Positions 11,550-61,829 of a DNA stretch of 64,000 nt are shown one piece after another; the first letter of the stretch is position 1, and each line of letters begins with the position of its first letter. This DNA is from Actinomycetota bacterium (GTDB taxonomy: Bacteria > Actinomycetota > Humimicrobiia > Humimicrobiales > Humimicrobiaceae). The notes under the pieces are model-generated. The model was given only the letters and a program-made list of their open reading frames with translations. It had not been told where the DNA came from and did no database searches. Both the position numbers and the translations under genes were made by a program. The stretch spans positions 6,481 through 70,480 of the forward strand of contig VGAZ01000001.1 in the NCBI GenBank assembly GCA_016870615.1. The letters run 5' to 3'.

Positions 11550-11625
11550 GGCGCATTCGTCTAGTGGCCCAGGACATAGCCCTCTCACGGCTAAAACAGG
11601 GGTTCGAGTCCCCTATGCGCTACCA
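11550..11625 (+). tRNA. tRNA-Glu (anticodon CUC)
   Basis: Folded by hand into a cloverleaf: 7-bp acceptor stem GGCGCAU/AUGCGCU, D-arm GUCU..GGAC, anticodon stem UAGCC/GGCUA with loop CUCUCAC, T-arm AGGGG-UUCGAGU-CCCCU, and an encoded CCA. It closely resembles bacterial tRNA-Glu. Confidence 0.85.
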
Positions 11626-24409: not shown

Positions 24410-24543
24410 ATGGGTTTAAAGCTAAAAAAAATTTAATTTATATTTGAATTCTTTGTGTTAAGTTTTTACAGTTGTGGCCAGACATAGAATTGTGACGATA
24501 TAAGTTTTAAATTATCATATTTTTAAGAATTACCGGAATTTAA

Positions 24544-24571
24544 AAACAGGCTTTTTGGCCTGTTTTTAATT
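24544..24571. terminator. bidirectional intrinsic terminator (AAACAGGC-loop-GCCTGTTT with flanking A and T runs)
   Basis: A perfect 8-bp stem has an A-run upstream and a T-run downstream. It lies between the SPFH gene (+) and a small minus-strand ORF. Confidence 0.5.
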
Positions 24572-25219
24572 TGATTCCTGATTTTCTATTTATTGCGCCT
24601 TACTTTTCTTTTTGCTGCAAAATAAAAATAATTATCCACCACAAGATACATAAATATAGCCAGGCATATGACAAAAGCTGTCGGCCTTAATACATATAAC
24701 AGGTCGCTGATAAATAAATCTAACATCTTATTTCATTCCTTTTATTCAAATATAATTATCAAAATACTTTTATAATTATATTTGTATTTTATTATTGTTT
24801 TTAATTTATAAAATTATTATATTACTTTACTAATATTAAAGTCAATAAAATATTTATATAATTATTATACATATATAATATTATTTATATCTTTTTATTA
24901 GTTTTTACAGCTATCTGGAGTTTGCAAATAATTTAAAATAAATTTAATCCTTATAAGAATAGACTATTTCCTGCAGCTGTATTGTCACATCATACTACTG
25001 AATATATCTTATGCAGCTTATAGATAGAATGTATAAAAGCTAGAATCTGCAAAACAGCGGGCCTGCCTTGTTAATAATATAAAGGAACCTTTTTTATGGC
25101 GCTGTATTTATTAAAAAGGATAAGCCTGAAAGAAATAAAGCAGGGAGCCATGCTTTTTTATACTGTTTTGTATACTTAACTGAGAAAAAAGAATGTTTGT
25201 AAATTTGAAGACAAAAAAA

Positions 25220-25652
25220 TTAGAGCTGGCCTGTAAGCCGAGTCCTGTTCTGATGGCCGGCAAATAAATTACCGGATACCAGCGGCAGTCATCCATCTGG
25301 GATAAATATTGCTATTTATCTCAAGCGGCCTTACCCGGAAGAAGAGCGGGCAACTCCATTTCTTCCCTATTTGGCCTTGCTTCGGGTGCGGTTTTCAAGG
25401 CCAGCCTGTTGCCAGGCTGCCGGTGAGCTCTTAACTCGCCATTTCACCCTTACCTGCCTGTAAAATAATTATATATTAAAGACAGGCGGTATATTTTCTG
25501 CTGCACTTTCGCTGAAGGCGCATTTACATAAGCCTCCGCCGGGTGTTACCCGGCACCCTGCCCTGTAAAGCTCGGACTTTCCTCCCGGGCTTACCTTTAA
25601 AAGCAAAATCGCAGATAAAAGTATATACCCGGGCGACTGCCCGGCCAACTCT
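25220..25652 (-). ncRNA. rnpB: RNase P RNA, bacterial type A
   Basis: The reverse complement contains GGAGGAAAGTCCGAGC...ACAGGGCAGGGTGCCGGGTAACACCCGG, CAGGTAAGGGTGAAATGG...GTTAAGAGCTCACC, AGCAAGGCCAAATAGGG, GCTTGAG, AGATGGATGACTG and ACAGAAC...CGGCTTA. These are collinear with universally conserved regions of E. coli M1 RNA. The P1 termini pair (GAGTTGGCC / GGCCAGCTC). Confidence 0.85.
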
Positions 25653-25826
25653 TAATAATATGATATATGTAATTTTTAAAAAATCAAGCCGGAAGGAAAT
25701 ATCCAGACATGTCTATCCCTTCCCTGCAAAATAGCGCTTAGCAATACACAATCATTATTTTTGCGCAGTTTAAAAACATAGAAAAGTATGATAAAAGAAA
25801 GGTTTGCCTGATTCTGATTTTAAAAC

Positions 25827-26357
25827 CTAAGACTTATCTTCAATTGTACCGAATTTAATATTATTGCCGTTTAAAAGAGTCTTATTTCCCCCAATGCCGT
25901 AAATTTCCCTGTCAAGAGCAATATTTACAAGCCTGTCTGCAGCACTGTTCTGTTCCCGCGGAATAAGCCTCAAATCCACAATCTCATAATCCTTAAGCCT
26001 TTTTACAATCTTTTTATAGATCTCAAAGAGGTTTTCATCCTTTATTTTCCAGATTCTTTTCAGCTGATTGTGAACAAGCTTGCTGTCGGTATTTATTATA
26101 ATGCGCCTTACATTATAATTATTTTTATATTTCTTTATAACATCAAGCACTTTTTCAAGTGACCTGTATTCTGCAACATTATTAGTACATTGGCCTACAT
26201 ACTCTGCAATTTCCTCAATTATATTATCATTTTTATCATAAACAACTGCGCCCACTGCAGACGGCCCGGGATTTCCTCTTGAGCCGCCGTCAAAATATAT
26301 TTTTAAATATTCAAAATTAAGATCCGCCAAAATGACTTCCCCATCAGTAAGATTCAT
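25827..26357 (-). CDS. rnhA: ribonuclease H (type 1)
   Basis: The FDGGSRGNPGPSAVGAVV motif and a downstream TNNVAEY...L acidic-residue arrangement fit RNase HI. Confidence 0.8.
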   Translation of the reverse strand: MNLTDGEVILADLNFEYLKIYFDGGSRGNPGPSAVGAVVYDKNDNIIEEIAEYVGQCTNNVAEYRSLEKVLDVIKKYKNNYNVRRIIINTDSKLVHNQLKRIWKIKDENLFEIYKKIVKRLKDYEIVDLRLIPREQNSAADRLVNIALDREIYGIGGNKTLLNGNNIKFGTIEDKS

Positions 26358-33291: not shown

Positions 33292-33368
33292 TGGTGGGCC
33301 CACCTGGATTCGAACCAGGGACCTCCGCATTATGAGTGCGCTGCTCTAACCAGCTGAGCTATGGGCCC
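33292..33368 (-). tRNA. tRNA-Met (anticodon CAU), elongator-like; tRNA-Ile2(k2CAU) not excluded
   Basis: The reverse complement is GGGCCCATAGCTCAGCTGGTTAGAGCAGCGCACTCATAATGCGGAGGTCCCTGGTTCGAATCCAGGTGGGCCCACCA. It folds into a cloverleaf with anticodon loop CUCAUAA and closely resembles E. coli elongator tRNA-Met. Confidence 0.8.
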
Positions 33369-45856: not shown

Positions 45857-46495
45857 TTATCGTTTTACCGCTTCAACAAATTTTTTAGCAGCAGCTGATG
45901 CATCCGGAGCATATATTTCTATACCATACATGTCAGCAAAATGCTGTGTAACAGGGGCCCCGCCTACTGCAAGGGCAACTTTGTCCCTGAGCCCTGCATC
46001 CTCTATAGCCTTTATATGGGCAGGAATGTTGGCAAGAGTTGTTGTTAAAAGGCCTGAAAATGCAACAATGTCGGGGCTGTTTTCTTTTATTGCAGTTACA
46101 AAAGTTTCATAATCAACATCTATGCCAAGATCTATTACCTTAAAACCCTGCCCCTCTGCCATTGTTATAACAAGGTTTTTGCCTATATCATGAAGGTCGC
46201 CTTTTACAGTGCCTATTAAAAGCGTTCCTTTTTCTGAAATATGTTCTGAGCCTTTAAGAAGCGGCTTTATATAATCCATTGCTGTTTTCATTGCCTTTGC
46301 AGCAAGAAGCATATCAGGCATGTATAGCTCGCCTGAACCGAATTTATCCCCCACCTCTATCATTGCAGCAGAAAGGGCATTGTTTATAATATCATCAAGA
46401 GGCTGGCCTTTATCTATTGCATCCTTAACAAGCCCCTGCATGTCTTTATAATTACCTGCAACTACTGCATCGTAAATTTCCTTCAATTCTGACAT
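45857..46495 (-). CDS. methyltransferase cognate corrinoid protein (B12-binding)
   Basis: An N-terminal B12-binding-2 helical cap is followed by a Rossmann B12 domain with the DxHxxG motif (GDLHDIGKN). Confidence 0.85.
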   Translation of the reverse strand: MSELKEIYDAVVAGNYKDMQGLVKDAIDKGQPLDDIINNALSAAMIEVGDKFGSGELYMPDMLLAAKAMKTAMDYIKPLLKGSEHISEKGTLLIGTVKGDLHDIGKNLVITMAEGQGFKVIDLGIDVDYETFVTAIKENSPDIVAFSGLLTTTLANIPAHIKAIEDAGLRDKVALAVGGAPVTQHFADMYGIEIYAPDASAAAKKFVEAVKR

Positions 46496-46539
46496 TTATC
46501 TCTCCTTTACTTTTATTAATTGCAAAGATTATTAATTTT

Positions 46540-47643
46540 TTAATATGCTCCGTATTTATGTATTGCATTTATATATGCAATTACATTTTCATGCGGTATG
46601 TAATTCACTACTGAGTGGGAAACAGTTGCAACATAACCGTAACCCGGTTTTAAAACTTCCATGTGAGCCTTTACATCTGCATCAACGTCTTCAGGTGTGC
46701 CTTTTGACAATGGAAACTCTATATCAACATTGCCTGAAAGGCAGAGCCTGCTTCCATATCTTTTTTTATACTCAACATAATCAACTCCATAGGGATCCAT
46801 TGGATTAAGGCAGTCAAGGCCTATTTCTATAAGGTCCTCTACTATATCATCTATCCTGCCGTCGGAATGAAACATTATTGGTATTCCTGCATTTAAAGCA
46901 GGCTCAAAAACACGGGCCATTCTTTTTACCCACATTTCCTTAAATATTTTAGGAGGTATAAAAAGACCGGTTTTAAAAGCAACATCATCAGCTGGAAATA
47001 CAAAATCCACACCCGCATCAACAAGTGCTTTAGTTAGGTTTACAAAATGCTCGCATGATACTTCAAGCATATCCTCAACAAGTTCCCTGTCCTCGTATAC
47101 CATCATCATAAAATCATTCATGCCTACAACAAATTCATAAGGAGTTTGCAGCATGCATCCATAAAGCGCAGATACGCCGATTTTTGAATTTCTTTTGTTT
47201 ATAGCATCTTTATATTCCTTAACATACCCTGCGGCACTATTTATGCTATTCTCCGAATCAAGCACCAGTGCGTCAAAATCCTTCCTTGTCTTTACTGACC
47301 TGTCATAAGCAGGTACAAGCTCACCCTTTTCATTATATTTTTTAAAGGGAGTCCAGATGCCCCCGTCAAACATCATTGCGTCCTGGCCCACAATATTGCA
47401 CAAATCTATGAAATCATCAGGAAACATGGGCCTGCCCTGTTCTGCATCCGCGCCTTTGGCAGGATCCCCGCCATATGATAAAGTATTTCCTGCAAACCTG
47501 CCAAGCAGCTTTTCAACATGCTGGTCCTCATAAAGGACTTCAAAATTTGGAACCCTGTCAACAGGCTTTCTCTTAAACGCTGCCAAAAGTCTTTCCTTGT
47601 CCGGTCCGCCTTTAAAGGGTTCTATTGTTTTTGTGTTTATCAT
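46540..47643 (-). CDS. uroporphyrinogen decarboxylase (UroD/MtaA/CmuA) family methyltransferase
   Basis: It is 367 aa with a UroD-fold TIM barrel (N-terminal VDRVP, C-terminal FHSDGRI...LNPMDP). It lies beside a corrinoid protein. Confidence 0.7.
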   Translation of the reverse strand: MINTKTIEPFKGGPDKERLLAAFKRKPVDRVPNFEVLYEDQHVEKLLGRFAGNTLSYGGDPAKGADAEQGRPMFPDDFIDLCNIVGQDAMMFDGGIWTPFKKYNEKGELVPAYDRSVKTRKDFDALVLDSENSINSAAGYVKEYKDAINKRNSKIGVSALYGCMLQTPYEFVVGMNDFMMMVYEDRELVEDMLEVSCEHFVNLTKALVDAGVDFVFPADDVAFKTGLFIPPKIFKEMWVKRMARVFEPALNAGIPIMFHSDGRIDDIVEDLIEIGLDCLNPMDPYGVDYVEYKKRYGSRLCLSGNVDIEFPLSKGTPEDVDADVKAHMEVLKPGYGYVATVSHSVVNYIPHENVIAYINAIHKYGAY

Positions 47644-47802
47644 TTTTACAAACCTCCGTAACTGCCTGTTATAGTATTAGAAAAGATGAGTTAAATAATA
47701 TTTTTATTATATGCAATTTATAGCAGATATGCAATAAATCATGCTAATTTTGCAATAAATTTTTACTGCATACCCGTTTGATAATGAACGCGGCCATAAA
47801 AA

Positions 47803-48123
47803 TCAATCCAGGTGAAACACCTCTTCGAGCATCTCTATTTCAGGGCCCAGCGTATTTTTATCTTCCTTGATAAAGTATTTTTCCATATGCTCCTGCCACT
47901 TTTTATTGAGCTGTGTGCTGCTTATCTTTTCCATGGAAGCGTTAAAGTCATCAGCTTCAAGATATGCAAAAAGAGTGCCGTCCCCGCGGAAATATATTGA
48001 ATAATTTCTAATGCCTGAATCACTTATTACTTTTGCAAACTCGGGCCATATCTGGTCATGTGCCTTTTTATATTCAGCCTTAAGCTCAGGTTTGATTTTA
48101 AAAACAAATGCCGCCCTTGCCAT
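47803..48123 (-). CDS. rhaM: L-rhamnose mutarotase
   Basis: It is collinear with E. coli RhaM as I recall it (AAFVFKIKP, HDQIWPEF, NYSIYF, EEVFHL). Confidence 0.85.
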   Translation of the reverse strand: MARAAFVFKIKPELKAEYKKAHDQIWPEFAKVISDSGIRNYSIYFRGDGTLFAYLEADDFNASMEKISSTQLNKKWQEHMEKYFIKEDKNTLGPEIEMLEEVFHLD

Positions 48124-48182
48124 TAACGCAACCTCCTAAATAGAAATATTTGACTATATTTAAACCGGTAAATGCCCCAACT

Positions 48183-49163
48183 TTATTTGAAAATAAGATC
48201 TGTTATAAGATCCATATTATCTGCAAACCTGTATCCTTTGATGTTTTCGTCGATTATCTTCTCATTTTTAAGAAGCTTTGATGCAAGGTCCTGGAATTTG
48301 TGCGTCAGTTTTACTCCAAGAGCAAGGGATTTTGCCCTGTCATCCCTTGGGGCTATTATATCTATCGCGCACCAGCCATCATAATTTGTTTTATTAAGAT
48401 AATAATAAAATTCTAGTATTTCCCAGAAATTTACAGTCCCGAAAATCATGTCTGGGTCTGCATCCTTGTAATTTTCATTGATATGTATCTGGTAAAGCTT
48501 TCCCCAGTAATCAAGAAGCGCAACAGACTCCCCTATGCCTTCTGCTGCAACAAGAGCATGGCCGATATCAAGGGCGCATCCGACATTATCAAGCCCGACA
48601 TCGTGAATAAACGCCATTGCTTTTCCTGTGTCCCCTATATACTGTTTCTGCCTCGGATCCTTAAGCTTTGCCTCAATGGCAATTTTCATATCCTTTGCAT
48701 ATTCGCCTATTTCCCTTACAGTTTCAACCAAATATTTCCAGCCCTGCACATAATTAACCTGGAAAACATAATCATAACCGTCATGCGCGGGCCACAGAAG
48801 CACACTTTGCGCATTTACCGCTTTTGCAAAATCAATGGCCTCCTTAAACAGCTTTACAGCTTCTTTCCTTATTTTTTGATCATTGGCGCAGAAAGAGCCA
48901 TGCCTCCATTTCCTGTCAGCAAAACATTCTACTGCCACATTTGAGACCTTAAGACCGTAATCGCCTATTTTTTTAACCAGCTTATCTGGGTCATTTGGAA
49001 GAGGAGCTGTTGGATAAAAAGTAAACAAACCGTCAAGCCCCTTTATTTTGGACATAATTTCAAGCTGCTGTTCCACACTCATTTCGTCATAATAACCCCC
49101 GGGAACATATCTTTCAGCATAGGTACCAAGACACCATAGATGCGCATCCACATTCAGTTTCAT
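48183..49163 (-). CDS. sugar phosphate isomerase/epimerase (xylose isomerase-like TIM barrel) family protein
   Basis: It has an AP-endonuclease-2/XI-like TIM barrel pattern (VLLWPAHDGYDY, ALDIGHALVAAEG, YQIHINENY). Confidence 0.6.
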   Translation of the reverse strand: MKLNVDAHLWCLGTYAERYVPGGYYDEMSVEQQLEIMSKIKGLDGLFTFYPTAPLPNDPDKLVKKIGDYGLKVSNVAVECFADRKWRHGSFCANDQKIRKEAVKLFKEAIDFAKAVNAQSVLLWPAHDGYDYVFQVNYVQGWKYLVETVREIGEYAKDMKIAIEAKLKDPRQKQYIGDTGKAMAFIHDVGLDNVGCALDIGHALVAAEGIGESVALLDYWGKLYQIHINENYKDADPDMIFGTVNFWEILEFYYYLNKTNYDGWCAIDIIAPRDDRAKSLALGVKLTHKFQDLASKLLKNEKIIDENIKGYRFADNMDLITDLIFK

Positions 49164-49238
49164 AACTATTGCCTCCAGTCATTAAGTAAATAATAAATCA
49201 ATAATCTCTATGGTATTTTTTACCATAGAGGCGGTAAT

Positions 49239-50423
49239 TTATGCCTTTTTATTTAAACCATCAATTATTTTATTAAGGGCATTCCTGTAATAGGTAAAAT
49301 TATCCCATGTGCAGTCCTGTGACACAAAATGGTCTATATGCGGGATATATCTTCCCTTTTTTAAAAGCTCTGCAGCTATTGAAAGCTCCGCGTCTATTTT
49401 TGCCCTGGTGGAGCCTTCAAAAAGCACGCGCTTATCTATTCCACCCATGAGCTGGAAATCCGGGAAATTTTTCCTTATGCGCAGCATATCATTTCCGGCA
49501 GCCCTTTCAAAAGGATACATTCCTGTAACGCCTGTCTCAACAATTAAGGGGATAAGGTCCTCAACATAGCCGTCGCTGTCTGTAAGGATTATGTCAATAC
49601 CTGCCTCTTTTGCAAAATTGACAATTTTTTTATAGCGGGGCCTTAAAAATTCCCTGAAATGAGCAGGCGATATAAGGGAGCCTCCCTTGCCTGCCATATC
49701 CTCCCATATAAGTATGCAGTCCACTTTAACATCATTTACTATTGCACCGTAATACTCCAGAAGGAAATTACAAAATGTTTCGCATATATCATGAATGAGT
49801 TCAGGGTCATCATACATTACCATCATATAATCAGTAAGCCCCATTATCTGCCTTGGAAAGCCTAAAAAACCGCCGTTTGTTCCTCCAAGGCGTATGGGAA
49901 AATCCCTGTCCTTTAGCCTTGCGGCAAGGTTATCCCAGTCTGGCGGAAGCCGTTTCTTTATTGTATTGCTGCTGTAATGCTGTTTATACTCCTGCCAGCT
50001 TTTTTTGTCTTTTACCGGGTGGGCAAGCTCCATTGGAAGTGATGTTATATGTATGTCGTTTTTTAATGTGACGCCGTATTCGTCTTTATATATTATATGG
50101 GTATCAGTTTTGTCGATTTCTTCTATTTTAAACATGGGGCTGTAGTCCACCGGAAATTTTGTAAGATACTGGTCAAGCCCAAACACCGGCTGCACATTGA
50201 CATCGCCTGCTTTTTCCATATCAGCATAAATATTCTTATTTGCCATTATTGCTATGCCGTCAGATATTTTATCAGGCACAGGCTCTATCATTTTAAGGCC
50301 CTGGTCAAACCACCGCCTGATGGTGCCTGCCCAGTAACCAAATTCCACCATGGGGACCTGGACACCGCTATAGTCACCATCTGCCATGCGCATTACAGAT
50401 AAAAATTTTTCTCTTGAGTTCAT
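49239..50423 (-). CDS. UroD/MtaA-family methyltransferase (paralog 2)
   Basis: It is a paralog of 55354..56628 (EFGYWAGT, CILIWEDMAGKGGSLISP, ILTDSDG). The start is trimmed to MNSREKF by analogy with the paralog's MDTREKF; the listed ORF extends to 50483. Confidence 0.65.
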   Translation of the reverse strand: MNSREKFLSVMRMADGDYSGVQVPMVEFGYWAGTIRRWFDQGLKMIEPVPDKISDGIAIMANKNIYADMEKAGDVNVQPVFGLDQYLTKFPVDYSPMFKIEEIDKTDTHIIYKDEYGVTLKNDIHITSLPMELAHPVKDKKSWQEYKQHYSSNTIKKRLPPDWDNLAARLKDRDFPIRLGGTNGGFLGFPRQIMGLTDYMMVMYDDPELIHDICETFCNFLLEYYGAIVNDVKVDCILIWEDMAGKGGSLISPAHFREFLRPRYKKIVNFAKEAGIDIILTDSDGYVEDLIPLIVETGVTGMYPFERAAGNDMLRIRKNFPDFQLMGGIDKRVLFEGSTRAKIDAELSIAAELLKKGRYIPHIDHFVSQDCTWDNFTYYRNALNKIIDGLNKKA

Positions 50424-50445
50424 AATCATTATTAATCTAATTATA

Positions 50446-51426
50446 TCAATACAGTTGCAAATGCCTTTTGTTCCTGAATGCATCTATTGCTATAACAAGA
50501 ACCAGCAAAGCGCCTTTTACAACCATTCTCAGGAATACAGGAACATTTAGAAGCACCATTCCGTTTGTAATTGTCTGGATAATTATAAGGGCTATAAAAA
50601 CTCCAAGATAGTTACCCCTGCCGCCACCGACAACCACTCCGCCAAGAACTACAATAGTAAGAACCTCAAGCTCTGCACCCGTGCCATACTCTGGCCTTCC
50701 TGAGCCAAGCTGAGAGATAAGCAATAGCCCTGCTACAGAACAGAAAAAACCGCTTATAACATATGATAATATTTTTATACGGTCAACAGGTATACCGGCA
50801 AGCCTGGCAAGTGTTTCGTTGCCTCCAATGGTAAAAAGATCCCTTCCGAACCTTGTGAACTTTAATATGAGAGTTAAAGCTACAAATGCAATGATTATAT
50901 AAAGAGTAGTTATTGGAAATACATTACCAAGATAAATCCTTCCAAAATTCTGCACAAATACATTATATACCCTGGGATTTAAATCAGCCCAGAAATAGCA
51001 AACTCCCCTGAAAATAGCAAGTGTGCCCAGCGTTGTAATAATAGGGTTTATTCCCACTTTTGTAATTATAAGCCCGTTAATTAAGCCTACAGTGCATCCT
51101 ATTGCTATAGCTATAAGAAAGACCCAGGGAGTAGCTACCTCTATTCCTTTCATTAACAGTACTGAGCTCACTATGCCTGCAAGACCTGCAGTTGAACCAA
51201 TTGCTAGATCAAAACCTCCACCAATCATTACAACAGTCACTCCTGCTGCTAGAATCCCAAATACTGCAAAATTATTATAAATTCCTTTAATGTTCTGTAT
51301 TGTAAGGAATTTATCGCTTGTAAGGGAAAATAGCAGCATCATAACAATATAAATTCCTATCAGTGTAGGTGTTGGTGTTCTTAAAAAACTTAAAAACCCA
51401 GAATATTTTTTCACAGCTTTTTCCAT
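50446..51426 (-). CDS. sugar ABC transporter permease (CUT2/RbsC-like)
   Basis: It has about 9 TM helices and a BPD_transp_2 pattern. Confidence 0.8.
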   Translation of the reverse strand: MEKAVKKYSGFLSFLRTPTPTLIGIYIVMMLLFSLTSDKFLTIQNIKGIYNNFAVFGILAAGVTVVMIGGGFDLAIGSTAGLAGIVSSVLLMKGIEVATPWVFLIAIAIGCTVGLINGLIITKVGINPIITTLGTLAIFRGVCYFWADLNPRVYNVFVQNFGRIYLGNVFPITTLYIIIAFVALTLILKFTRFGRDLFTIGGNETLARLAGIPVDRIKILSYVISGFFCSVAGLLLISQLGSGRPEYGTGAELEVLTIVVLGGVVVGGGRGNYLGVFIALIIIQTITNGMVLLNVPVFLRMVVKGALLVLVIAIDAFRNKRHLQLY

Positions 51427-52410
51427 TTATGTTCTCCTCCTGGCAACTGCCTGCCTAATTTCATATGTTGAAACTACAAGTATCAGGACAGAACCCTGTA
51501 CCATTTGAATGTAAAAATAGTAAATATTCATTATTGTAAGGAAATTATAAAGCACACTTAAAATAAACACTCCTGCAAGTGTTCCAAGTATCTGTCCCCT
51601 GCCTCCTCCCAGGGCAGTTCCGCCCAGTATAATAGCTGATATAATCACAAGTTCCTGGCCCTGTCCGTGCTGCGGCATCCCGACCGCAGATAAAGACGTA
51701 AGCACCAGTCCGCCAAGAGCAGCCGCTGCTCCACAAAATAAAAAGCCGATAAATTTCACTTTTTTAACATTTATGCCTGAAAGAAACGAAGCGAGCGGAT
51801 TTGCCCCAATAGCATATATCCTCCTGCCCCATTTTGAATGATTCATAATAATATAAGTTATGATAAATACTGCTACCAAAAGAACTATTGGAAACGGGAT
51901 AACTTTAAATACAAAACCCCTGCCAATATAATCTATGACCGTATTTAGGGCAAGTTTGGATTCCCCGTTTGTAATAGTGTAACCTATGCCTCTCCATATA
52001 AACATTGTACCTATGGTAGCAATAATAGAATTTACCCCTACAACTGTTACAAGCATTCCATTAAATGCACCCATTGCAAATCCGCCGGCAAGCGCAATTA
52101 TCACTACAAGCCAGCCCGGCAAACCCTTTTCAAGCAGTAAAGCAGTAAGGCACGCTGTAAGGCCGATATTTCCGCCAATGGAAAAATCTATTTCTCCGGA
52201 AACCATTACCATTGTAAGTATTGCAGCAATTATCCCGACAAATGAAAGATTATTAATCATTGGAATAAGATTCAATTTAGAAAAGAAAAATGGCCTTCCC
52301 ACATATGAAAATAATGCAAACATTACAACAAGAATAAGAAAAAGTATTGCTGTATTATTTAATCTTACTTTCTTTTTTTGTAAAACATCAACAGTCTTAT
52401 CATCTACCAT
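51427..52410 (-). CDS. sugar ABC transporter permease (CUT2/RbsC-like), second copy
   Basis: It is homologous to the adjacent permease, and its start abuts the stop of the upstream gene. Confidence 0.8.
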   Translation of the reverse strand: MVDDKTVDVLQKKKVRLNNTAILFLILVVMFALFSYVGRPFFFSKLNLIPMINNLSFVGIIAAILTMVMVSGEIDFSIGGNIGLTACLTALLLEKGLPGWLVVIIALAGGFAMGAFNGMLVTVVGVNSIIATIGTMFIWRGIGYTITNGESKLALNTVIDYIGRGFVFKVIPFPIVLLVAVFIITYIIMNHSKWGRRIYAIGANPLASFLSGINVKKVKFIGFLFCGAAAALGGLVLTSLSAVGMPQHGQGQELVIISAIILGGTALGGGRGQILGTLAGVFILSVLYNFLTIMNIYYFYIQMVQGSVLILVVSTYEIRQAVARRRT

Positions 52411-52427
52411 AAACCCTCCCTATATTA

Positions 52428-53921
52428 TTACAGGCATGCTGAACGAAGCAGACCTTCTTCTGAGGCATCGCATATTTTATATTCTTCCGTAAACCTTCCC
52501 TTGCTCATAACTATTATTCTATCAGCAATAGAAAGAATTTCCGGAAGCTCTGAGCTTATCATGATTATTGAAGAGCCTTTTTCACATAAATCCTGCATCA
52601 ATTTATATATTTCAATTTTTGCGCCTACATCAACTCCTCTTGTGGGCTCATTTAAAATTATTATTTGCGAACCACTTTCAAGCCATTTGGCAAGAACGAC
52701 TTTCTGCTGGTTTCCCCCTGAAAGGCTGTTTACCTCCTGTTCAACTGAAGGTGTTCTTATCCCTATTTCATCTACCCAATTACCAGCTTTCCTGCGTTCC
52801 TGGTTCCTGGCTATCAGAAAACTTTTTCCAAGTTCTTTAATGTTTGCAAGGGTTATGTTTTCTTTAACGCCCATCATAAGCGCAAGGCCCTCAATTTTCC
52901 TGTCAAGGGGCACCAGTCCAATTTTTGCATCCCTTGCCATGCCCGGACTTTTAATTCTAAGTTTTTTACCGTTAACTATTATCTCTCCATTTTTTATCTT
53001 ATTTGCACCAAAAAGGGCTTTAACAAGTGAACTCCTGCCTGAACCAAGCAGGCCAAATATTCCAAGTATCTCACCTTTCCTTAGCTTAAAACTTATATTG
53101 TCAAACCCTTCAGCACCAAGATTATTAACTTCCATGACCACGCCACCAATGGGTACGTGCCTTTTGGGATACATGTCTTTTATGTCCCTTCCAACCATCA
53201 TTTCCACAAGTTTATTGGAATCAGATTCTTTTGTTTTAAGTGTTCCGACTTTTTTCCCGTCCCTAAGCACTGTTACCCTATCAGTTATTTCAAAAATTTC
53301 TTTCAGCCTGTGTGAAATATATATTATTGCAACACCTTTTGTTTTTAAGGCCTGTATTATCTTAAAAAGGGATTGTGTTTCCTCTTCTGAAAGAGCTGCA
53401 GTGGGTTCATCCATGACAAGTATTTTTGCTTCCTGTGAAATTGCTTTGGCAATTTCCACAATCTGTTTTTCAGAAACAGTCAAATCTCCAATTATTGCAT
53501 TGGGATCAAGTTTAACATTCATAACAGCAAGCAGCTCCTCAGCTTTTTTATTCATGCCTTTCCAGTCTATGATCTTTAATGGTCCTTTTACCAGCTGTTC
53601 ACCAATAAAAATATTTTCAGCCACTGTAAGATTATTTATAGTATTTAACTCCTGGTATATTACCCTTATGCCTGAAGACATAGCTTCAGCAGGACCCTTT
53701 ATTTCAAATTTCTGGCCATCAATAAAAATATCTCCAGAGTCTTTTATGTAATTGCCCGCAAGTATTTTTATAAGGGTTGACTTGCCTGCACCATTTTCCC
53801 CAAGTATCCCCAGTACTTCACCTTTATACAAATCAATTGAGACATTGTCTAATGCTACAACTCCAGGAAAAGTTTTCGTAATATTTTCCATTCGCAAAAC
53901 TATTCCATTACTGTCTGACAC
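52428..53921 (-). CDS. sugar ABC transporter ATP-binding protein, duplicated ATPase (RbsA/MglA-like)
   Basis: It has two NBDs: Walker A GENGAGKST, signature LSVSEKQ, and a second degenerate Walker A GLLGSGRS with LSGGNQQK. Confidence 0.9.
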   Translation of the reverse strand: MSDSNGIVLRMENITKTFPGVVALDNVSIDLYKGEVLGILGENGAGKSTLIKILAGNYIKDSGDIFIDGQKFEIKGPAEAMSSGIRVIYQELNTINNLTVAENIFIGEQLVKGPLKIIDWKGMNKKAEELLAVMNVKLDPNAIIGDLTVSEKQIVEIAKAISQEAKILVMDEPTAALSEEETQSLFKIIQALKTKGVAIIYISHRLKEIFEITDRVTVLRDGKKVGTLKTKESDSNKLVEMMVGRDIKDMYPKRHVPIGGVVMEVNNLGAEGFDNISFKLRKGEILGIFGLLGSGRSSLVKALFGANKIKNGEIIVNGKKLRIKSPGMARDAKIGLVPLDRKIEGLALMMGVKENITLANIKELGKSFLIARNQERRKAGNWVDEIGIRTPSVEQEVNSLSGGNQQKVVLAKWLESGSQIIILNEPTRGVDVGAKIEIYKLMQDLCEKGSSIIMISSELPEILSIADRIIVMSKGRFTEEYKICDASEEGLLRSACL

Positions 53922-54046
53922 TTTATCACCACCCGTATAGCAAAATTGAGGAGACTGGCTAAAACAGCCTCCCCAATTTTTTGATAATTTATGACATTGT
54001 TAATATCATTTCTGGCATATCATGTTTTATTATACTAATATACTAT

Positions 54047-55138
54047 TTATTCAGGATACCATTCATCAATATTATCTTTATTTATTACAACATTTTCAAC
54101 ATAAAGGAATGGCGGAACAATTTGGCCCATCATAAGTGCAACTGCTGCAGGTACAAGATACTCCCCATATCTTTCAGGGAAAAACGCAACTGAACCGTCT
54201 GTAAGTCCATCACGGATTTGCTGCTTGCCAACATCATCACAGCCCATTGTAACTATAAACCATTTTTCAGGATCCCATCTGCCTGCAGTCTGTATGGCTG
54301 CAATACAACCGCTCATGGTCTGCTCATTAATTGATGTCATTGCAACATATTGTGCATCAGGTATTGTTGAAAGTATGTCTGTCATAGCTTTGTTGGCCTG
54401 CTCTGCTTCGCCGGCTCCGCCGTCTGCCCTGTAAGTAATAGGATCAATTTTTTCTGCACCATATTTGTCAACAAAAGCCTGGTAAAAACCTTCTGATCTC
54501 AGCATAAGGATATCGCCACCGGCAGGAAATTGCATAAGCACTATTGCATCAAGCATATCAATTCCGCCCATTGCTTCTACTGCCGCTACTGCATATTCTC
54601 CACCAAGATAAGAAACATAGAAATTGTTAACACCCATAAATGGTGCGCCAGGTGTTGGTACGTCAACAGCTATAATCGGTATTCCTGCCTGGCCGAATTT
54701 TGTAGCTATAATACTGTTTACTTTGGCATCAAACTGGAAGTTAATGAGAACATCAGGACTTTTTGCAAGCATGATATCTGCATTTTTAAGCCCGATTGTT
54801 GCATCATACTGGTTGTCAGCATAATATAGGTCTCCAGGTGCGCCACCTGCTAAAGCCCACTGTTTCTGGACATCTGACCAAACTGATTCGCAGAAAGGTA
54901 TTCCACCCATTATGTTTGTAAAGGCAAGTGTTTTGCCTGCTGCAGGTGCATCAGGATATGCTTCACCTTTTTTAGCTACTTCCCTGAGCATTTCGTAATA
55001 ATCATATGCAGCCTCTCCAATAACTTCAGCTGCTTTGGTTTCTTCGGCTTTTTGTGCCTGTACACAACCTGAAAAAGAAATTGTTGCCGCCAGTACTACA
55101 ACTAGAATTGCTGCCAATAATACTACAGTTTTTTTCAT
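54047..55138 (-). CDS. ABC transporter substrate-binding lipoprotein, periplasmic sugar-binding (type I PBP) family
   Basis: A signal peptide with lipobox FSGC is followed by a PBP type I fold. Confidence 0.75.
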   Translation of the reverse strand: MKKTVVLLAAILVVVLAATISFSGCVQAQKAEETKAAEVIGEAAYDYYEMLREVAKKGEAYPDAPAAGKTLAFTNIMGGIPFCESVWSDVQKQWALAGGAPGDLYYADNQYDATIGLKNADIMLAKSPDVLINFQFDAKVNSIIATKFGQAGIPIIAVDVPTPGAPFMGVNNFYVSYLGGEYAVAAVEAMGGIDMLDAIVLMQFPAGGDILMLRSEGFYQAFVDKYGAEKIDPITYRADGGAGEAEQANKAMTDILSTIPDAQYVAMTSINEQTMSGCIAAIQTAGRWDPEKWFIVTMGCDDVGKQQIRDGLTDGSVAFFPERYGEYLVPAAVALMMGQIVPPFLYVENVVINKDNIDEWYPE

Positions 55139-55353
55139 TTTTCCTCCTTTTTATTAATTGGTTTTTATAAAATGATTTTTGCCTGTTATTTTCACATTCT
55201 CCTTTCAATTAAGTTTTTAACATAAAAATAGAATAGCTTTTGACCATAAGAGATTTCAGAATGAAATATAATTTAGAAAAACGATTTTCTAAAAATACCA
55301 TACAATATTTATTTTGTCAATATTTTGTCATTTAGTGTCATTTAAATAATTTT

Positions 55354-56628
55354 TTATATACCATCAATCATACTGTTTAATTGTTCCCTGTAATACTTAA
55401 AATTGCCCCAGGGTACTTCCGGGGGAATCAAATGGTCACCGAAAGGTATGTATCCCCCCTGCTTTAAAAGCCATTGGACCGGCTCAAGTATTTCATCAAT
55501 TCTTTCTTTGCCTTTGGCAATTTCAAGCTTTGGAATGCCACCCATAATAAAAAGGCCGGGGTAATCTTTTCTAAGCTTTACAACATCCATGCCTGCGCTT
55601 ACTTCCATAGGGTAAAGCCCTGTTACCCCTGCATCTATAAATATTGGAACAAGTTCATTGCAGTCTCCATCTGTATCAACAAGAAAAATATCAATTTTTT
55701 TACTCTTTAAAAAATTCGATATTTTTTTGTAGTACGGCGCCATAAACTCCCTGATTAGAACAGGGGAAACCATAGAACCTTTACCGGATGATATATCCTC
55801 CCAAATATTGCATAAATCTATATCAGTATAAACAAGTATTTCTTCCCAGAGAGCAATCCATATGTCGGTTAGCCGGTCAAGAATATCTTTTATAAGGTCG
55901 GGATGGTCATAATAAAAAAGAAATAAATTTTCATAACCTATAAGATGAGTTAAAGTGCCAAATATGCCATTGGGATAACCCCCTACTGCAAGAGGATAAT
56001 CCCTTCCCTTATATTCCTTAACTAGTTCATCCCAGTTTGCCGGAAGCCTGTCTTTTATATTATCAAGTCGCATTCTCTGGCTTTTAATCTCCTCCCATGA
56101 CTTCCAGTCTTTTATCGGCCAGTCAAGCCCTGCCGGAAGCACCTGTTCTGATTTTGAAAACCTCCTGGTGCATCCGTCAAGGTCTATATAGTCAATATAT
56201 TTTTCATCTTCAAAAATAATTTTGGTTTCAAATTGCGGATAAAAAAGCTGTTCTGCGCAAACTATTATCTGCACTTCATCCATTTTAAAATAGTTTTTAA
56301 CGTCTTTATCAACTGCAAAACCCTGGGTGGGCCAGTAAAGCCCCCCTGCGCATACAGGCATGCCATCTGGAAGCTTTACTCCATCGGGCTGGTTAAACAT
56401 TTTTTCAAAAAGGTTTTTGTCTTTTTTTAAAAAATGCCTCCACACTGCAGTATAAAGTGAAGCAGTGCTATTAACTATATTTACAGGCACAACAGGATAA
56501 TTATTTAACGGCAGTCCCTCGCAGTACCAGTTATTCAGCGTTTTACCCCAATACCCAAATTCCCATTTTACTGAACTTGCTTTCTGCTTAAAGTGCGCGC
56601 ATTCTATAAATTTCTCTCTTGTGTCCAT
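55354..56628 (-). CDS. UroD/MtaA-family methyltransferase (paralog 3)
   Basis: It is 424 aa and similar to 49239..50423 along its whole length. Confidence 0.7.
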   Translation of the reverse strand: MDTREKFIECAHFKQKASSVKWEFGYWGKTLNNWYCEGLPLNNYPVVPVNIVNSTASLYTAVWRHFLKKDKNLFEKMFNQPDGVKLPDGMPVCAGGLYWPTQGFAVDKDVKNYFKMDEVQIIVCAEQLFYPQFETKIIFEDEKYIDYIDLDGCTRRFSKSEQVLPAGLDWPIKDWKSWEEIKSQRMRLDNIKDRLPANWDELVKEYKGRDYPLAVGGYPNGIFGTLTHLIGYENLFLFYYDHPDLIKDILDRLTDIWIALWEEILVYTDIDLCNIWEDISSGKGSMVSPVLIREFMAPYYKKISNFLKSKKIDIFLVDTDGDCNELVPIFIDAGVTGLYPMEVSAGMDVVKLRKDYPGLFIMGGIPKLEIAKGKERIDEILEPVQWLLKQGGYIPFGDHLIPPEVPWGNFKYYREQLNSMIDGI

Positions 56629-56662
56629 AGATCACCTGTTGCAAAGATTTTTAAATTTTATT

Positions 56663-58070
56663 TTAAAGAAGTCCTTTTTTCCTGTAATACTCTGTGGCTT
56701 CTTTTAATATACTGTCAATTTCTTTGTCCTGCTGGGGAGTTAGAGGAACAGGCTTATGTGTCGCCACTATTTCCTCATATTTTTCTTTTGCCTTATCAAG
56801 AGCTGTTTTTTTGCCGGTGTTAATCCATTCCTGATAAGATGATTTATCAAACATTTTCGGCATATAATCTTCTGTTTTCCACATGGTCCTTGTCTGTTTG
56901 GAATTCAGGAAAGTTCCGCTGCTTGCCACTTCCTTAATTACGTCAAGTCCTATTGTTTCATCATTTACAGTAAATCCTTCAACAATGCGGCCTATTGTCT
57001 TTGCTATATCATCATCAAGTATTGCAAGAACCGGATTGTATGCAAGCTCTGCAGTAACCCCGCCGTGAAGGACTATAAGATTGGCGCCTGAAAGTGCAGA
57101 TGCCGTTGCAAGCGGAAGCTTTTCGGCCCCAAGCTGGTAGTCAATTATTTTTGCATTGGAAAAAGCTGAACCGGTATTGTTTACCGGTATATTATAGTGA
57201 TAGTGCCATATCTGGTTATATGCCATCTGGTGAAGCGCAATAGCAGCAGTGCCGAAGTTTAAATCGCCAGTCTGCATATTCATTGCAGACACAAAATTAT
57301 TTGCAATAATTCCGCATCCCGGTTTTATGCATTGCAGAAGCACAATAATTGCAAGAAGCTCTGCGTTGTGGGAAACAGATGCGCCTGCAATCGTAATCGG
57401 ATGAGAGCCGCCCATTATTGAGCCGGAGGCTATATATATTGGAAATCCTGCATCAAGATAATGAAAAGCGGCATTGCACGGATCCTCTGCAAGTGACAGC
57501 GGCGCCGCACCTTCAACACAGCCCATTATCTGGGCGCCCACAGCCTGCGCAATTTTAGTTTCCCATATAAAAGAGTCTGTTGGCTGAGCTCCCCTTGAGG
57601 CAGCTCATTACGGGTGGAACTCCCTCCAGTTCGAAATAAGGGGTATATGAAGGAAAGACATTTACTGAATCAAGATAGTCCGACACCATAACACCAATAT
57701 TATTCTGCTCAAGGGTTGGCATTGTAACAATTCCTGTATCAATATCAACATGCCTTGCGCCTGCCGAGTTCATGAAATACATTGTATTGCCGCCAAGCCT
57801 TATGCTTTTTTCGCTATCTCTGGCCTTAAGATAAAAACTTGAAGGTGTTTTTGAAATTGCCCACTGCACCAGGCTCGGGGGTATTTTTGCTGTCATTGAT
57901 GCGTAATCTACAATGCAGCCATGCTCTTCAAGTAGCTTTAAAGCCTTTTGTGATTCATACTTAAAACCTACTTCTTCCAGAACATTCAGCGATGCAGTGT
58001 GTATCTGTTCTATCTGTGAACTGGAAAGCACCTTTACAGGCTCAAAATTTAATTTATATCCTTTTTGCAT
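56663..58070 (-). pseudogene. MttB-superfamily (trimethylamine/glycine betaine-type) methyltransferase, interrupted by a frameshift
   Basis: The N-terminal 171 aa (LSSSQIEQIHTASLNVLEEVGFKYES...) and the C-terminal 292 aa are collinear with MttB/MtgB proteins but lie in different frames. The upstream ORF stops at TAA (57555). The downstream frame is open from 57604, giving a 50-nt overlap. Confidence 0.7.
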
Positions 58071-58178
58071 AATTATCTGTTCCTTTCACTTATCTTAAAG
58101 ACACTGAAGTTCATAAAAAACTTTTGAAATCAAGATTTTTACCTTTATAAAAACAAAGAGAAAAATCCCATGTTTAAA

Positions 58179-58823
58179 TTAATCAATGCCCATAAATCTT
58201 CTGCAGATTTTTACACCTTCAGGGGCTGTTGAGCCATAACCGTCTGCTCCAATGGAGTCGGCAAATTCCTGGTTTATGGGGCTTCCCCCAACAATTATCT
58301 TTACCCTGTCTCTTATACCTGCATCTTTTAAACCTTCGATTACTTTTTTCTGTTCCATAGCAGTTGTTGTAAGAAGAGCCGACATTGCAAGTATGTCTGC
58401 ATTTTCCTCCTTTACAGCTTTTAAAAAATCTTCACCTTTTACATTTATGCCAAGATCAATAACTTTAAAGCCGGCAGCATACAAAAGCGTTGCAACCATG
58501 CCCTTGCCTATTGAATGAATATCTCCAAACACTGTACCTATAACAACTTTACCCACAGAAGACTCACTGCCTCCCTGTTTTTGGATCGCCTCATTTATGA
58601 CTGGAAATGCTTTTTTTAAAACTTCAGAAGCGCAAACAAGATCAGGCAGGAACAGGTCGCCTTTGCCAAACCGCTCACCCACATCCCTGATTGCCTCAGT
58701 TAAAGCATTTGCAGCCTTAAGAGGATCTGTTCCGGATTCAATAGCATCTTTTGCAGTCTCCTCTGCATTGTCTATATCAAAATTAAGTACAATGTCTTTT
58801 AACTGCTGTACAAAATCTGCCAT
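58179..58823 (-). CDS. methyltransferase cognate corrinoid protein (B12-binding), second copy
   Basis: It has a B12-binding-2 cap and the DxHxxG motif (GDIHSIGKG). Confidence 0.85.
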   Translation of the reverse strand: MADFVQQLKDIVLNFDIDNAEETAKDAIESGTDPLKAANALTEAIRDVGERFGKGDLFLPDLVCASEVLKKAFPVINEAIQKQGGSESSVGKVVIGTVFGDIHSIGKGMVATLLYAAGFKVIDLGINVKGEDFLKAVKEENADILAMSALLTTTAMEQKKVIEGLKDAGIRDRVKIIVGGSPINQEFADSIGADGYGSTAPEGVKICRRFMGID

Positions 58824-58903
58824 CGCGGGCCTCCTTTTTTGATTGTTTTTTATTATTTAATTTCAATTGATACTTTTTATAAATATATTTTCCGTTTTAA
58901 TCC

Positions 58904-59938
58904 TTATTTCGGGACAGCTGTGGATCCCCTGACTATAATTTCCGTTTCAAGAACAATATTCTTATTTTCCACCTTTTTACCTTCAATTATATCAAGCAAC
59001 AGATTTGCTGCTGTTGCCCCCATTATTTTTTTGGGCTGCTTTACAGTAGTTAGTGGAGGGTCTGAAAATTCACATATTATCTCATTATTAAAACCCATAA
59101 CTGATACATCCCCCGGAACCTTTAAGCCAAATTCCTTAAATGCATGAATTGCGCCTATTGCAAGAAAATCAGCAAGATTAAGGTATGCAGTTGCAATCTT
59201 TTTTTCCTCAACTCTTCTTTTAATAAGTTTGTATGTGGCCTTGAGCTCGTCAAGGCGCATAAGATCGTCTATTATTACAATATCCGGGTCATATTCAATA
59301 TTATTTTTTGCAAGGCCTGCACAATAACCTTCATACCTTCTTCTTATTGTTGTCTGGTTTTTAAAAGGAAAAGTTATAAAGCCTATTTTTCTATGGCCAA
59401 GGTCATAAAGGTACTGGAAGGCATTCTGCATGGCGGCCTTGTTGTCTATAAGCACAGATGGTATTTCGCTGTTCTTAAGCTCCCTGTCAAGAACTACAAC
59501 CGGTATATTTGAAAGATGGGCTTTTTTAATATGATCATATGAATCATAACCGCAAAAAAACATAAGACCGTCAATTGTCTGGTCTATCATAGCATTCATC
59601 TGCCGCTCTTCCTCATAAATGTCATAGAATGTACATCCGAGTATAAGGGTATAGTTTCTGGCACGTGCGGCCTCTTCAATGCCACGCAGCACCTGGGCAA
59701 AAAATGGCTGTGCTATATCTGGAAGGATTACCCCAAGAGTGCGTGTACTTTTTGTGCGCAGCCCCCTTGCAATAATATTAGGCCTGTAATTAAGTTTTTT
59801 TATTGCCTTTTTTACAGCGTCAGCCGTTTTATCTGAAACAAACTTGGTTTGGTTTATAACATGAGAGACTGTTGATATTACAACGCCGGACTCTTTGGCT
59901 ATATCTTTTATGGATGGTTTTTTAACAGATTTATTCAT
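58904..59938 (-). CDS. LacI family transcriptional regulator
   Basis: An N-terminal HTH (IKDIAKESGVVISTVSHVIN) is followed by a periplasmic-binding-like effector domain. Confidence 0.85.
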   Translation of the reverse strand: MNKSVKKPSIKDIAKESGVVISTVSHVINQTKFVSDKTADAVKKAIKKLNYRPNIIARGLRTKSTRTLGVILPDIAQPFFAQVLRGIEEAARARNYTLILGCTFYDIYEEERQMNAMIDQTIDGLMFFCGYDSYDHIKKAHLSNIPVVVLDRELKNSEIPSVLIDNKAAMQNAFQYLYDLGHRKIGFITFPFKNQTTIRRRYEGYCAGLAKNNIEYDPDIVIIDDLMRLDELKATYKLIKRRVEEKKIATAYLNLADFLAIGAIHAFKEFGLKVPGDVSVMGFNNEIICEFSDPPLTTVKQPKKIMGATAANLLLDIIEGKKVENKNIVLETEIIVRGSTAVPK

Positions 59939-60104: not shown

Positions 60105-61829
60105 ATGGATAAAAAAGAAATAGTTTCTGTTTTAAATAAAATAAGCATACTGTATGAGCTAAAAGGCGAAAACTTCTTTAAAATACGGGCATACCAGGCT
60201 GCTGCAAGGGCGCTTGAACTATCTGATATCAATATAGATAGCAATACTTTAGAAAGTGAACTCATTTCAATAAAAGGAGTAGGCAAAAGCATAGCCGCCC
60301 AGATAATTGAGCTTTCCAAAAACGAGTTGCCTGATTTATATAAAAACCTTAAATCATCAATTCCTGCCGGTCTTCTGGAAATGCTTAAAATACAAAAACT
60401 TGGGCCCAAAAAAATAAAATTTCTTTATGATGAAATGGGCATTTCAGATATTGGCCAGCTTGAATCAGCATGCATTGAAAACAGGATTGCAGGGCTTCCA
60501 AATTTCGGCAAAAAAACGCAGGACAATATACTTCACGGCATTGAACTGGTAAAGAAATTCAGTGAAGCCTTTCTTTACAGCATTGCTGCAGGCCAGGCAG
60601 AAACAATAGTGGAAAAATTACAAAGCTCAGGGCATATTACACATATCAGCATTGCAGGAAGCCTCAGGAGAAAAAAAGGCGTGGTAAAGGATATTGATAT
60701 AGTGGCCTGCACACAAAACCCTGGTGATGCAATGGATATTTTCACAGGGCTTTCCCAGGTAAGTGAAATTACAGCAAAGGGGGAAACAAAGTCATCAGTA
60801 AGGCTGAAATCAGGTATTAATGCAGATTTAAGGATTGTTGAAAACTTCCAGTATCCTTATGCGCTTCATCATTTTACAGGCAGCAAGGAACATAATACTG
60901 CAATGAGGTCACTTGCAAAAAAATCAGGCATTAAGATGAACGAATACGGGCTGTTTAAAAATGATAAGCTGATTAAATGCAGGGATGAAAAGGAAATATT
61001 TTCTGTATTTAATATGGAATATATTGAACCTGAATTAAGGGAAAATACCGGCGAGATTGAAGCAGCAGCTTCTCGTAGTCTGCCCGGCATCATAGATGAT
61101 AAAGATATCCTGGGGCTTTTCCATTTCCACACTGATTACTCAGATGGAAATATGAGCTTAAGACAGGCAACTGTGCGCCTTATTGAAATGGGTTTCTCTT
61201 ACTGCGGCATTTCCGATCATTCAAAAACAGCTGCTTATGCCGGGGGGATTGCAGATGAAAAAATTGCTGCATATATTGAAAACACTAATATTGTAAAGAA
61301 CGAATTTAAAGAATTTACAATATTTAGCGGAATTGAGTCTGACATCCTTGCAGACGGCAGCCTTGACTACAGTGACGAAATACTTTCACTTTTTGACTTT
61401 GTAATAATAGCGGTTCATTCCAGTTTTAACATGAACCGCAAAGCAATGACAGAGCGGATAATAAAAGGGATGCAAAACAGGTTTGCAACAATACTGGCTC
61501 ATCCAACCGGCAGGCTTTTGCTTGCAAGGGATCCTTATGATGTTGATATAAACGAAATTATTGATGCTGCCAGTGCTTATAATGTTGATATAGAAATAAA
61601 TGCAAGCCCCTTCAGGCTTGATCTTGACTGGCAGAACTGCAAGTATGCAAAAGAAAAAAATGTGAAAATTTTTATAAACCCCGATGCCCACAGCCTTGAA
61701 GGATTTAATGATTACAGATACGGCGTAAATGTTGCAAGAAAAGGCTGGCTTGAAAAAACAGATATTGTAAACACCTGGCAAGCTGATAAAGTGGCTCTTC
61801 ATTTAAGCCGTAAAAAACAGGCCAAATAA
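60105..61829 (+). CDS. polX: DNA polymerase X family protein with PHP domain (second paralog)
   Basis: It has HhH motifs, the GSLRRKKGVVKDIDIV palm and a PHP domain (HFHTDYSDG...ISDHS). Confidence 0.85.
   Translation: MDKKEIVSVLNKISILYELKGENFFKIRAYQAAARALELSDINIDSNTLESELISIKGVGKSIAAQIIELSKNELPDLYKNLKSSIPAGLLEMLKIQKLGPKKIKFLYDEMGISDIGQLESACIENRIAGLPNFGKKTQDNILHGIELVKKFSEAFLYSIAAGQAETIVEKLQSSGHITHISIAGSLRRKKGVVKDIDIVACTQNPGDAMDIFTGLSQVSEITAKGETKSSVRLKSGINADLRIVENFQYPYALHHFTGSKEHNTAMRSLAKKSGIKMNEYGLFKNDKLIKCRDEKEIFSVFNMEYIEPELRENTGEIEAAASRSLPGIIDDKDILGLFHFHTDYSDGNMSLRQATVRLIEMGFSYCGISDHSKTAAYAGGIADEKIAAYIENTNIVKNEFKEFTIFSGIESDILADGSLDYSDEILSLFDFVIIAVHSSFNMNRKAMTERIIKGMQNRFATILAHPTGRLLLARDPYDVDINEIIDAASAYNVDIEINASPFRLDLDWQNCKYAKEKNVKIFINPDAHSLEGFNDYRYGVNVARKGWLEKTDIVNTWQADKVALHLSRKKQAK

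Follow-up and report, generated by a model that had tools for sequence, protein, structure and literature searches.

The MttB-family methyltransferase gene that appears as two adjacent open reading frames in the window (by which we mean the whole 64-kb stretch of DNA that was analysed) lacks exactly 41 nt of its coding sequence, and the split reflects either a gene broken in an ordinary way or a flaw of the assembly, and not an instance of programmed frameshifting. We assign a probability of roughly 0.55 to a very recent, strain-specific deletion that caused loss of function, which would make the locus a pseudogene. The initial annotation had named both a pseudogene and an assembly indel as candidates, and both are still live explanations.

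As written in the window, the upstream ORF (58070..57555, minus strand) encodes 171 amino acids and ends at a TAA stop (57557-57555), and the downstream ORF (57541..56663, minus strand), which opens with an internal GTG at 57541, encodes 292. The ORF listing and a three-frame translation place the second in the +1 frame relative to the first, in agreement with the initial description of two adjacent reading frames out of register with each other, the upstream one closed by TAA. Both match Pfam PF06253 (MTTB, gathering cut-off 25), the N-terminal part over profile positions 26-154 (73.8 bits, E = 9e-21) and the C-terminal part over positions 217-490 (178.1 bits, E = 2e-52), which bears out the family assignment; and since a tblastn search of the 64-kb window found no second MttB-type sequence, this is indeed the only such gene of its cluster. 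The +1 frame is open already from 57604, and the stretch in which both frames can be read, initially put at 50 nt, is real but measures 47 nt by three-frame translation (57604..57558).

The two ORFs had been thought to cover a complete protein, and this they do not do. When the intact product of the closest relative, P0001, was compared with the window by tblastn, its residues 1-157 matched an N-terminal part of native codons 1-157 ending in ...VPPVMSC (57600..58070, minus strand; 99.4% identity), and its residues 172-482 matched, at 57598-56666 and in the +1 frame, a C-terminal part comprising native codons 172-482 and the stop (56663..57598, minus strand; 99.7% identity). Where P0001 reads ...VPPVMSC-PVSCAQRHRFSTKP-SRGAQPTDSF..., the window carries VPPVMSC in frame 0 but continues as SRGAQPTDSF in the +1 frame, such that 14 residues (158-171, PVSCAQRHRFSTKP) are absent; the halves are therefore not collinear and complete with respect to MttB-family proteins, but lack 14 conserved codons. 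Beyond codon 157 the upstream ORF continues into an out-of-frame tail, LKGSSANRLFYMGN, and the TAA stop (57555..57599, minus strand; three-frame translation and comparison with P0001), and the same bases read in the +1 frame give native residues 172-186. The predicted product, as the gene stands, would consist of 157 native residues and a 14-residue nonsense tail. A protein search that used the conceptual fusion of both ORFs as its query returned 398 relatives, among which the full-length homologs (n = 114) are about 482 residues long (482-483) and essentially all continuous, as against only 468 for the fusion.

Nucleotide alignments locate the lesion directly. Relative to four intact contigs (L001-L004), exactly 41 nt are missing at 57601/57598, and the same 41-nt gap appears against an intact allele, termed B, that shares the window's flanking variants (L036, L034/L041). 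The deletion removes codons 158-171 and thereby shifts the reading frame by +1; when the 41 nt are re-inserted, a single 482-codon ORF is restored, which is 1 nt different from that of L036. The frame change is this gap and not a 1-nt shift. Suspicion had initially fallen on an indel in the run of Ts at 57553-57556, and although that run (TTTT) exists, nothing beyond its existence favors a single-base homopolymer sequencing error: the run overlaps the stop codon and lies about 45 nt downstream of the lesion, the window is identical to the intact alleles in the +1 frame from 57598 onward, and the 41-nt gap accounts fully for the change of frame. We accordingly give this explanation no weight at all.

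The deletion junction, TG/CC/T (57598..57601, minus strand; from DNA alignments with L001-L004 and with allele B in L034/L036/L041), contains a 2-nt CC microhomology at 57600-57599, on account of which three placements of the deletion are equivalent (gene nt 471-511, 472-512 or 473-513). The window reads GAGCTGCCTCAAGG across the junction, and the allele B version of the region is GAGCTGCCCGGTATCATGCGCTCAAAGGCACCGTTTCTCAACAAAACCCTCAAGG. A search for the 41 nt relocated elsewhere in the window found no match with up to 3 mismatches, nor did a script that allowed up to 8. Direct or inverted repeats were also considered as an explanation for the deletion, and only the 2-nt CC microhomology was found; the site is flanked by a GAGCT/AGCTC inverted repeat, but the deletion endpoints are not set by it.

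The gene is continuous on more than a dozen contigs at 99.6-100% identity. Four independent metagenome contigs encode P0001 itself, in a neighbourhood that runs LacI, corrinoid protein, MttB, URO-D-like, and further contigs were retrieved with the adjacent URO-D-like and corrinoid proteins, which are identical, as look-up queries. Over the 3.4 kb compared with L003, all 7 substitutions fall within 57566-57708, around the gap. The intact alleles A and B show 12 differences, every one synonymous and within gene nt 453-510 (a 58-nt block), and four synonymous third-position variants taken from the mismatch lists (57618, 57615, 57612 and 57609; 57609..57618, minus strand) mark the window as allele B. 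Its flanking variants occur together with an intact 482-codon gene in two independent assemblies, L036 (Logan run SRR7052952) and L034/L041 (IMG 3300020221), and the window gene amounts to allele B minus 41 nt, with the 5' part of the block retained and the 3' part corresponding to the deleted stretch. The variant patch beside the deletion was considered as a sign of error-prone repair or of sequencing error and was rejected on the grounds that the same variants, all synonymous, are present in intact allele B (L034, L036).

Dense substitutions of this sort were seen twice among contigs that are otherwise 99.9-100% identical: at window 57561-57618 in the MttB gene (gene nt 453-510; 12 in 58 nt) and at window 55546-55639 in the URO-D-like gene (15 in 94 nt). 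By their sequence, both blocks look like short recombination tracts from diverged relatives, and the MttB block is similar to L005 in its 3' half. The population that carries the alleles appears to be one of Lake Tanganyika Actinomycetota; the Lake Tanganyika contigs come from Illumina sequencing and metaSPAdes assembly (PMC8245535). In a scan of genome contigs (28 loci), the closest relatives were mostly MAGs of uncultured Actinomycetota and Candidatus Humimicrobiaceae, the best of them with 94% amino acid identity to P0001.

The segment that is lost is highly conserved. S160, R164, R166 and K170 are invariant in 114/114 full-length homologs and A162 is present in 113/114, and a gap at residues 158-171 is not a common state among these 114; a second alignment of this region comprised 48 sequences. 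In an AlphaFold model of the intact allele (mean pLDDT 83.5, pTM 0.87), residues 157-167 form a TIM-barrel helix that leads into the next strand, and Foldseek comparison of the intact P0001 model with MtgB (9YCE, 2QNE) and MttB (7XCL) gave TM-scores of 0.86-0.88. A complete, collinear TIM-barrel domain is thus present in intact P0001 (TM-score 0.88 to MtgB) and missing from the gene as it stands in the window.

Because both frames are open over 47 nt, it might be supposed that the split is bridged during translation (a programmed frameshift was among the options named in the initial annotation): a programmed +1 ribosomal frameshift within the overlap (e.g., on CUC-UUU-U) would yield an MttB of about 468 residues, or the two ORFs might be made separately and assemble into a working enzyme of two pieces. 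The overlap does contain a TTTT run (CTC TTT TAT) that would let tRNA-Phe re-pair in the +1 frame. However, this generic run is the only slippery feature, and shuffled sequences fold as well as the RNA of the overlap region (z = -0.08), which leaves no stimulatory structure. Nor is the arrangement conserved: the split is absent at this site in all 114 full-length homologs and in more than 45 loci (the 28 genome loci and the contigs from look-ups of P0001 and of the URO-D-like and corrinoid proteins), including alleles with identical flanks, and the disruptions found elsewhere are scattered (residues ~100, 135, 164, 176 and 217) without a conserved site. A shifted product would still be deprived of 14 residues of a conserved barrel helix, five of them invariant by our count, and would carry up to 14 wrong residues; and for a two-piece enzyme, no obvious Shine-Dalgarno sequence was seen, on reading by eye, before the downstream GTG or ATG. 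We regard either form of this proposal as very improbable.

There remains the question of where the 41 nt were lost. We infer that the deletion is present in cells, and not only in the assembly, and that it entails loss of function. Independent contigs cover 21.6 kb of the window at 99.6-100% identity, with long stretches at 100%, and nowhere else in that coverage does the window stand alone in an indel, which argues against a noisy assembly. A real deletion is also favored by the 2-nt CC microhomology at its junction, and by the occurrence of other inactivating lesions in the group, namely a 13-nt deletion in PolX (Ga0194127_10005589) and a TGA at R164 in L033. Its probable origin would be a CC microhomology-mediated deletion inside a recombination-prone, strain-variable block: the loss of 41 bp from allele B would remove codons 158-171, shift the frame by +1 and end translation at a TAA once 157 native residues and 14 from the wrong frame had been made, which would disable the only substrate-activating methyltransferase of the operon.

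Alternatively, allele B may be intact in the organism, with the 41 nt having been dropped by an assembler, scaffolder, contig merger or polisher in the course of resolving the 58-nt block and its 12 strain differences. One observation against a pseudogene concerns position: each end of the deletion is no more than 1 nt away from a site at which A and B differ (gene nt 471 and 510), so that its edges coincide with the strain-variable block, as do only 10 of 1408 random placements (0.7%). Among the public contigs searched, the deletion allele is also unique to the window. Its junction has 0 matches in JGI metagenome contigs, as has the flanking patch pattern; none of the 171-, 287- and 292-aa products could be retrieved by exact look-up; when the 171-aa product was the query of a homology search, other truncated MttB fragments came back, none with the window's tail; and every one of the near-identical contigs that cover the deletion site is intact. 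Moreover, because the MttB-family gene shows no further decay, there is no independent sign of relaxed selection.

Other assemblies are seen to falter in this gene. At the edges of the block, L047 breaks off at 57619 and L039 begins at gene nt 511, which, together with the position of the deletion ends, is the pattern to be expected of an assembly or consensus artefact in a mixed population; elsewhere, the gene is split over two contigs in L029/L032, and L030 has a 100-N gap with a duplicated flank. L036, from run SRR7052952, carries the intact B allele at one position off the repaired window gene, and L053, from that same run, matches another part of the window at 100% identity. Where MttB is called as split in further public assemblies (L054, L055), error is evidently the cause. 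Set against this artefact are the otherwise indel-free state of the window and three further points: a junction k-mer that no read contains cannot be generated by a de Bruijn-graph assembler (which applies if the window was assembled in this way), the two ends share only 2 nt and hence too little for overlap-based joining, and a comparable frameshifting deletion of 13 nt occurs in an independent Illumina/metaSPAdes contig. We consider an artefact a serious contender, though its chances fall somewhat short of even.

Two potential sources of biological evidence were examined and set aside. Logan contigs that end at the junction could have been traces of the deletion allele in other read sets, but the A/B polymorphism explains these breaks: the final A/B variant immediately precedes the start of L039, and the end of L047 immediately precedes the first. 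The split MttB relatives P0122 and P0123 lie on long contigs with several broken genes and are probably assembly noise. Damage to the gene in other MAGs and contigs takes several forms. In L030 (2018-3618) it is mis-scaffolded, with the 100-N gap and a duplication of residues 279-296; in L054 and L055, which are long ENA contigs and probably noisy assemblies, it is frameshifted at residues ~176 and ~217, and the corrinoid gene of L054 is truncated as well.

Inactivating lesions were observed in two related contigs. In L033 (200-1648; JGI 3300009166, Ga0105100_10094194), a more distant relative which comes from another sample and has 78% nucleotide identity, an in-frame TGA occupies the codon of the invariant Arg164, for which 28 other loci use AGA, AGG or CGN, and the gene is called as products of 163 and 287 residues; this TGA falls among the very 14 codons that the window has lost. 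In the near-identical L041 (1621-1632; JGI 3300020221, Ga0194127_10005589), 13 nt corresponding to window 61193-61205 are deleted from a PolX/PHP DNA polymerase gene, the 574-aa product of which is intact in the window and split into 392 and 132 aa in L041; it is a second short, frame-breaking deletion from the same population. If the 41-nt deletion and the TGA of L033 are taken as two independent lesions in the same 14 codons, they would imply a mutational or recombinational hotspot, or selection in some strains for loss of the pathway, and helix 158-171, with its variable and recombination-prone DNA block, would then be a recurrent target for switching the methyltransferase off; this we think very unlikely. 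That lesions in codons 158-171 are decoded is a weaker possibility.

The gene belongs to a conserved operon consisting of a LacI regulator, a corrinoid protein, MttB, a URO-D/MtaA-like methyltransferase and an ABC transporter. At the head of the syntenic block stands the LacI-family regulator (58904..59938, minus strand; 344 aa; Pfam LacI and Peripla_BP_1/3), which has the same position in L001, L002, L034 and L036. It is followed by the intact cognate corrinoid (B12-binding) protein (58179..58823, minus strand; 214 aa; Pfam B12-binding and B12-binding_2; NCBIfam methyltransferase cognate corrinoid protein, 186 bits), the same product of which occurs on 18 other contigs. Immediately downstream of MttB, an intact gene of 424 codons (55354..56628, minus strand; Pfam URO-D, with a weak NCBIfam MtaA/CmuA match) encodes a URO-D/MtaA-like product that is identical on 9 other contigs and is presumed to be the methylcorrinoid methyltransferase. 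The transporter genes include a periplasmic solute-binding lipoprotein (54047..55138, minus strand; 363 aa; Pfam Peripla_BP_4) and an ABC ATPase (52428-53921). The wider cluster (45857-59938) is of unusual composition and holds two corrinoid proteins, three URO-D/MtaA-like genes, a xylose-isomerase-like TIM-barrel gene, a sugar-type ABC transporter and the LacI regulator. Within the same population, the signal-peptide and linker region of the lipoprotein (window 55009-55130) is replaced in L001 (7984-8145) by an unrelated cassette that is 42 nt longer, with the mature domain identical.

Elsewhere in the window, a bacterial class A RNase P RNA (25218-25652, minus strand; 294 bits) fills much of an apparently gene-free gap at 24409-25827, and there are genes for tRNA-Glu(CTC) (11550-11625, plus strand) and tRNA-Met(CAT) (33292-33368, minus strand). 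Between 28943 and 33230, a KatG catalase-peroxidase gene adjoins a gene for a Fur-family regulator, after which come small ORFs that, by eye, look like toxin-antitoxin pairs.

The split has little significance beyond annotation, which should read as a disrupted MttB-family gene with an internal 41-bp deletion, and not as two genes or as a candidate for recoding. If the deletion is real, the corrinoid methyl-transfer operon of this strain is intact except for its sole substrate-activating methyltransferase, which has been lost; this would be a small case of strain-level metabolic polymorphism in an uncultured freshwater population of Actinomycetota. If it is an artefact, it serves as a caution that short strain-variable blocks can yield frame-breaking lesions in metagenome contigs that are otherwise base-perfect. 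The subfamily to which the enzyme belongs is of greater interest than the split, given that the ligands of MtgB are not conserved and that the transporter and regulator are of the sugar type.

Among known systems, the locus resembles ordinary strain-specific pseudogenes formed by short deletions, which likewise have a frame-breaking internal deletion with minimal microhomology and are otherwise identical to functional alleles in the population; the only distinctive point here is the position of the deletion, exactly inside a block of synonymous differences between strains. Genes with programmed +1 frameshifts of the prfB/RF2 type also have overlapping frames of which the upstream one ends in a stop, but in the present case the site is not conserved in orthologs, the shifted product is without conserved sequence, and there is no stop-adjacent slippery motif of the CUU-UGA type with an upstream Shine-Dalgarno sequence.

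The product of the intact gene belongs to the MttB superfamily and is a member without pyrrolysine. The pyrrolysine-containing trimethylamine methyltransferase MttB of Methanosarcina barkeri (7XCL) is of the same superfamily (PF06253) and fold (TM-score 0.87), but here there is no in-frame UAG, and the interruption, at residue 157/172, is a deletion rather than a recoded stop. The initial annotation had already discounted an amber-pyrrolysine arrangement from the TAA stop, and we too rejected that reading: in an HMM alignment the pyrrolysine position corresponds to F317, an invariant Phe of the C-terminal part that lies a long way downstream, and no tRNA-Pyl was found in the 64-kb window. The score against the trimethylamine equivalog TIGR02369 is 285 bits, below its cut-off of 525. 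Another parallel is MtgB, the glycine betaine:corrinoid methyltransferase of Desulfitobacterium hafniense (2QNE, 9YCE), which has the same TIM-barrel fold (TM-score 0.88), 24-25% identity to P0001 and a profile match at E = 2e-68, is likewise without pyrrolysine, and is encoded in an operon of similar logic, with an adjacent cognate corrinoid protein and methylcorrinoid methyltransferase. It differs from this locus in that here a sugar-type ABC transporter and a LacI regulator are present and the window gene is broken by the 41-nt deletion. The residues of MtgB that bind glycine betaine (Y97, R312, H348 and F356; PMC13080624) align to A103, N311, L348 and E355 in our enzyme, in an HMM-based alignment in which the adjacent H349 could replace H348. 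Since these ligands are not conserved, the substrate is probably different from glycine betaine, and, as far as sequence comparison can indicate, it is probably neither trimethylamine nor glycine betaine.
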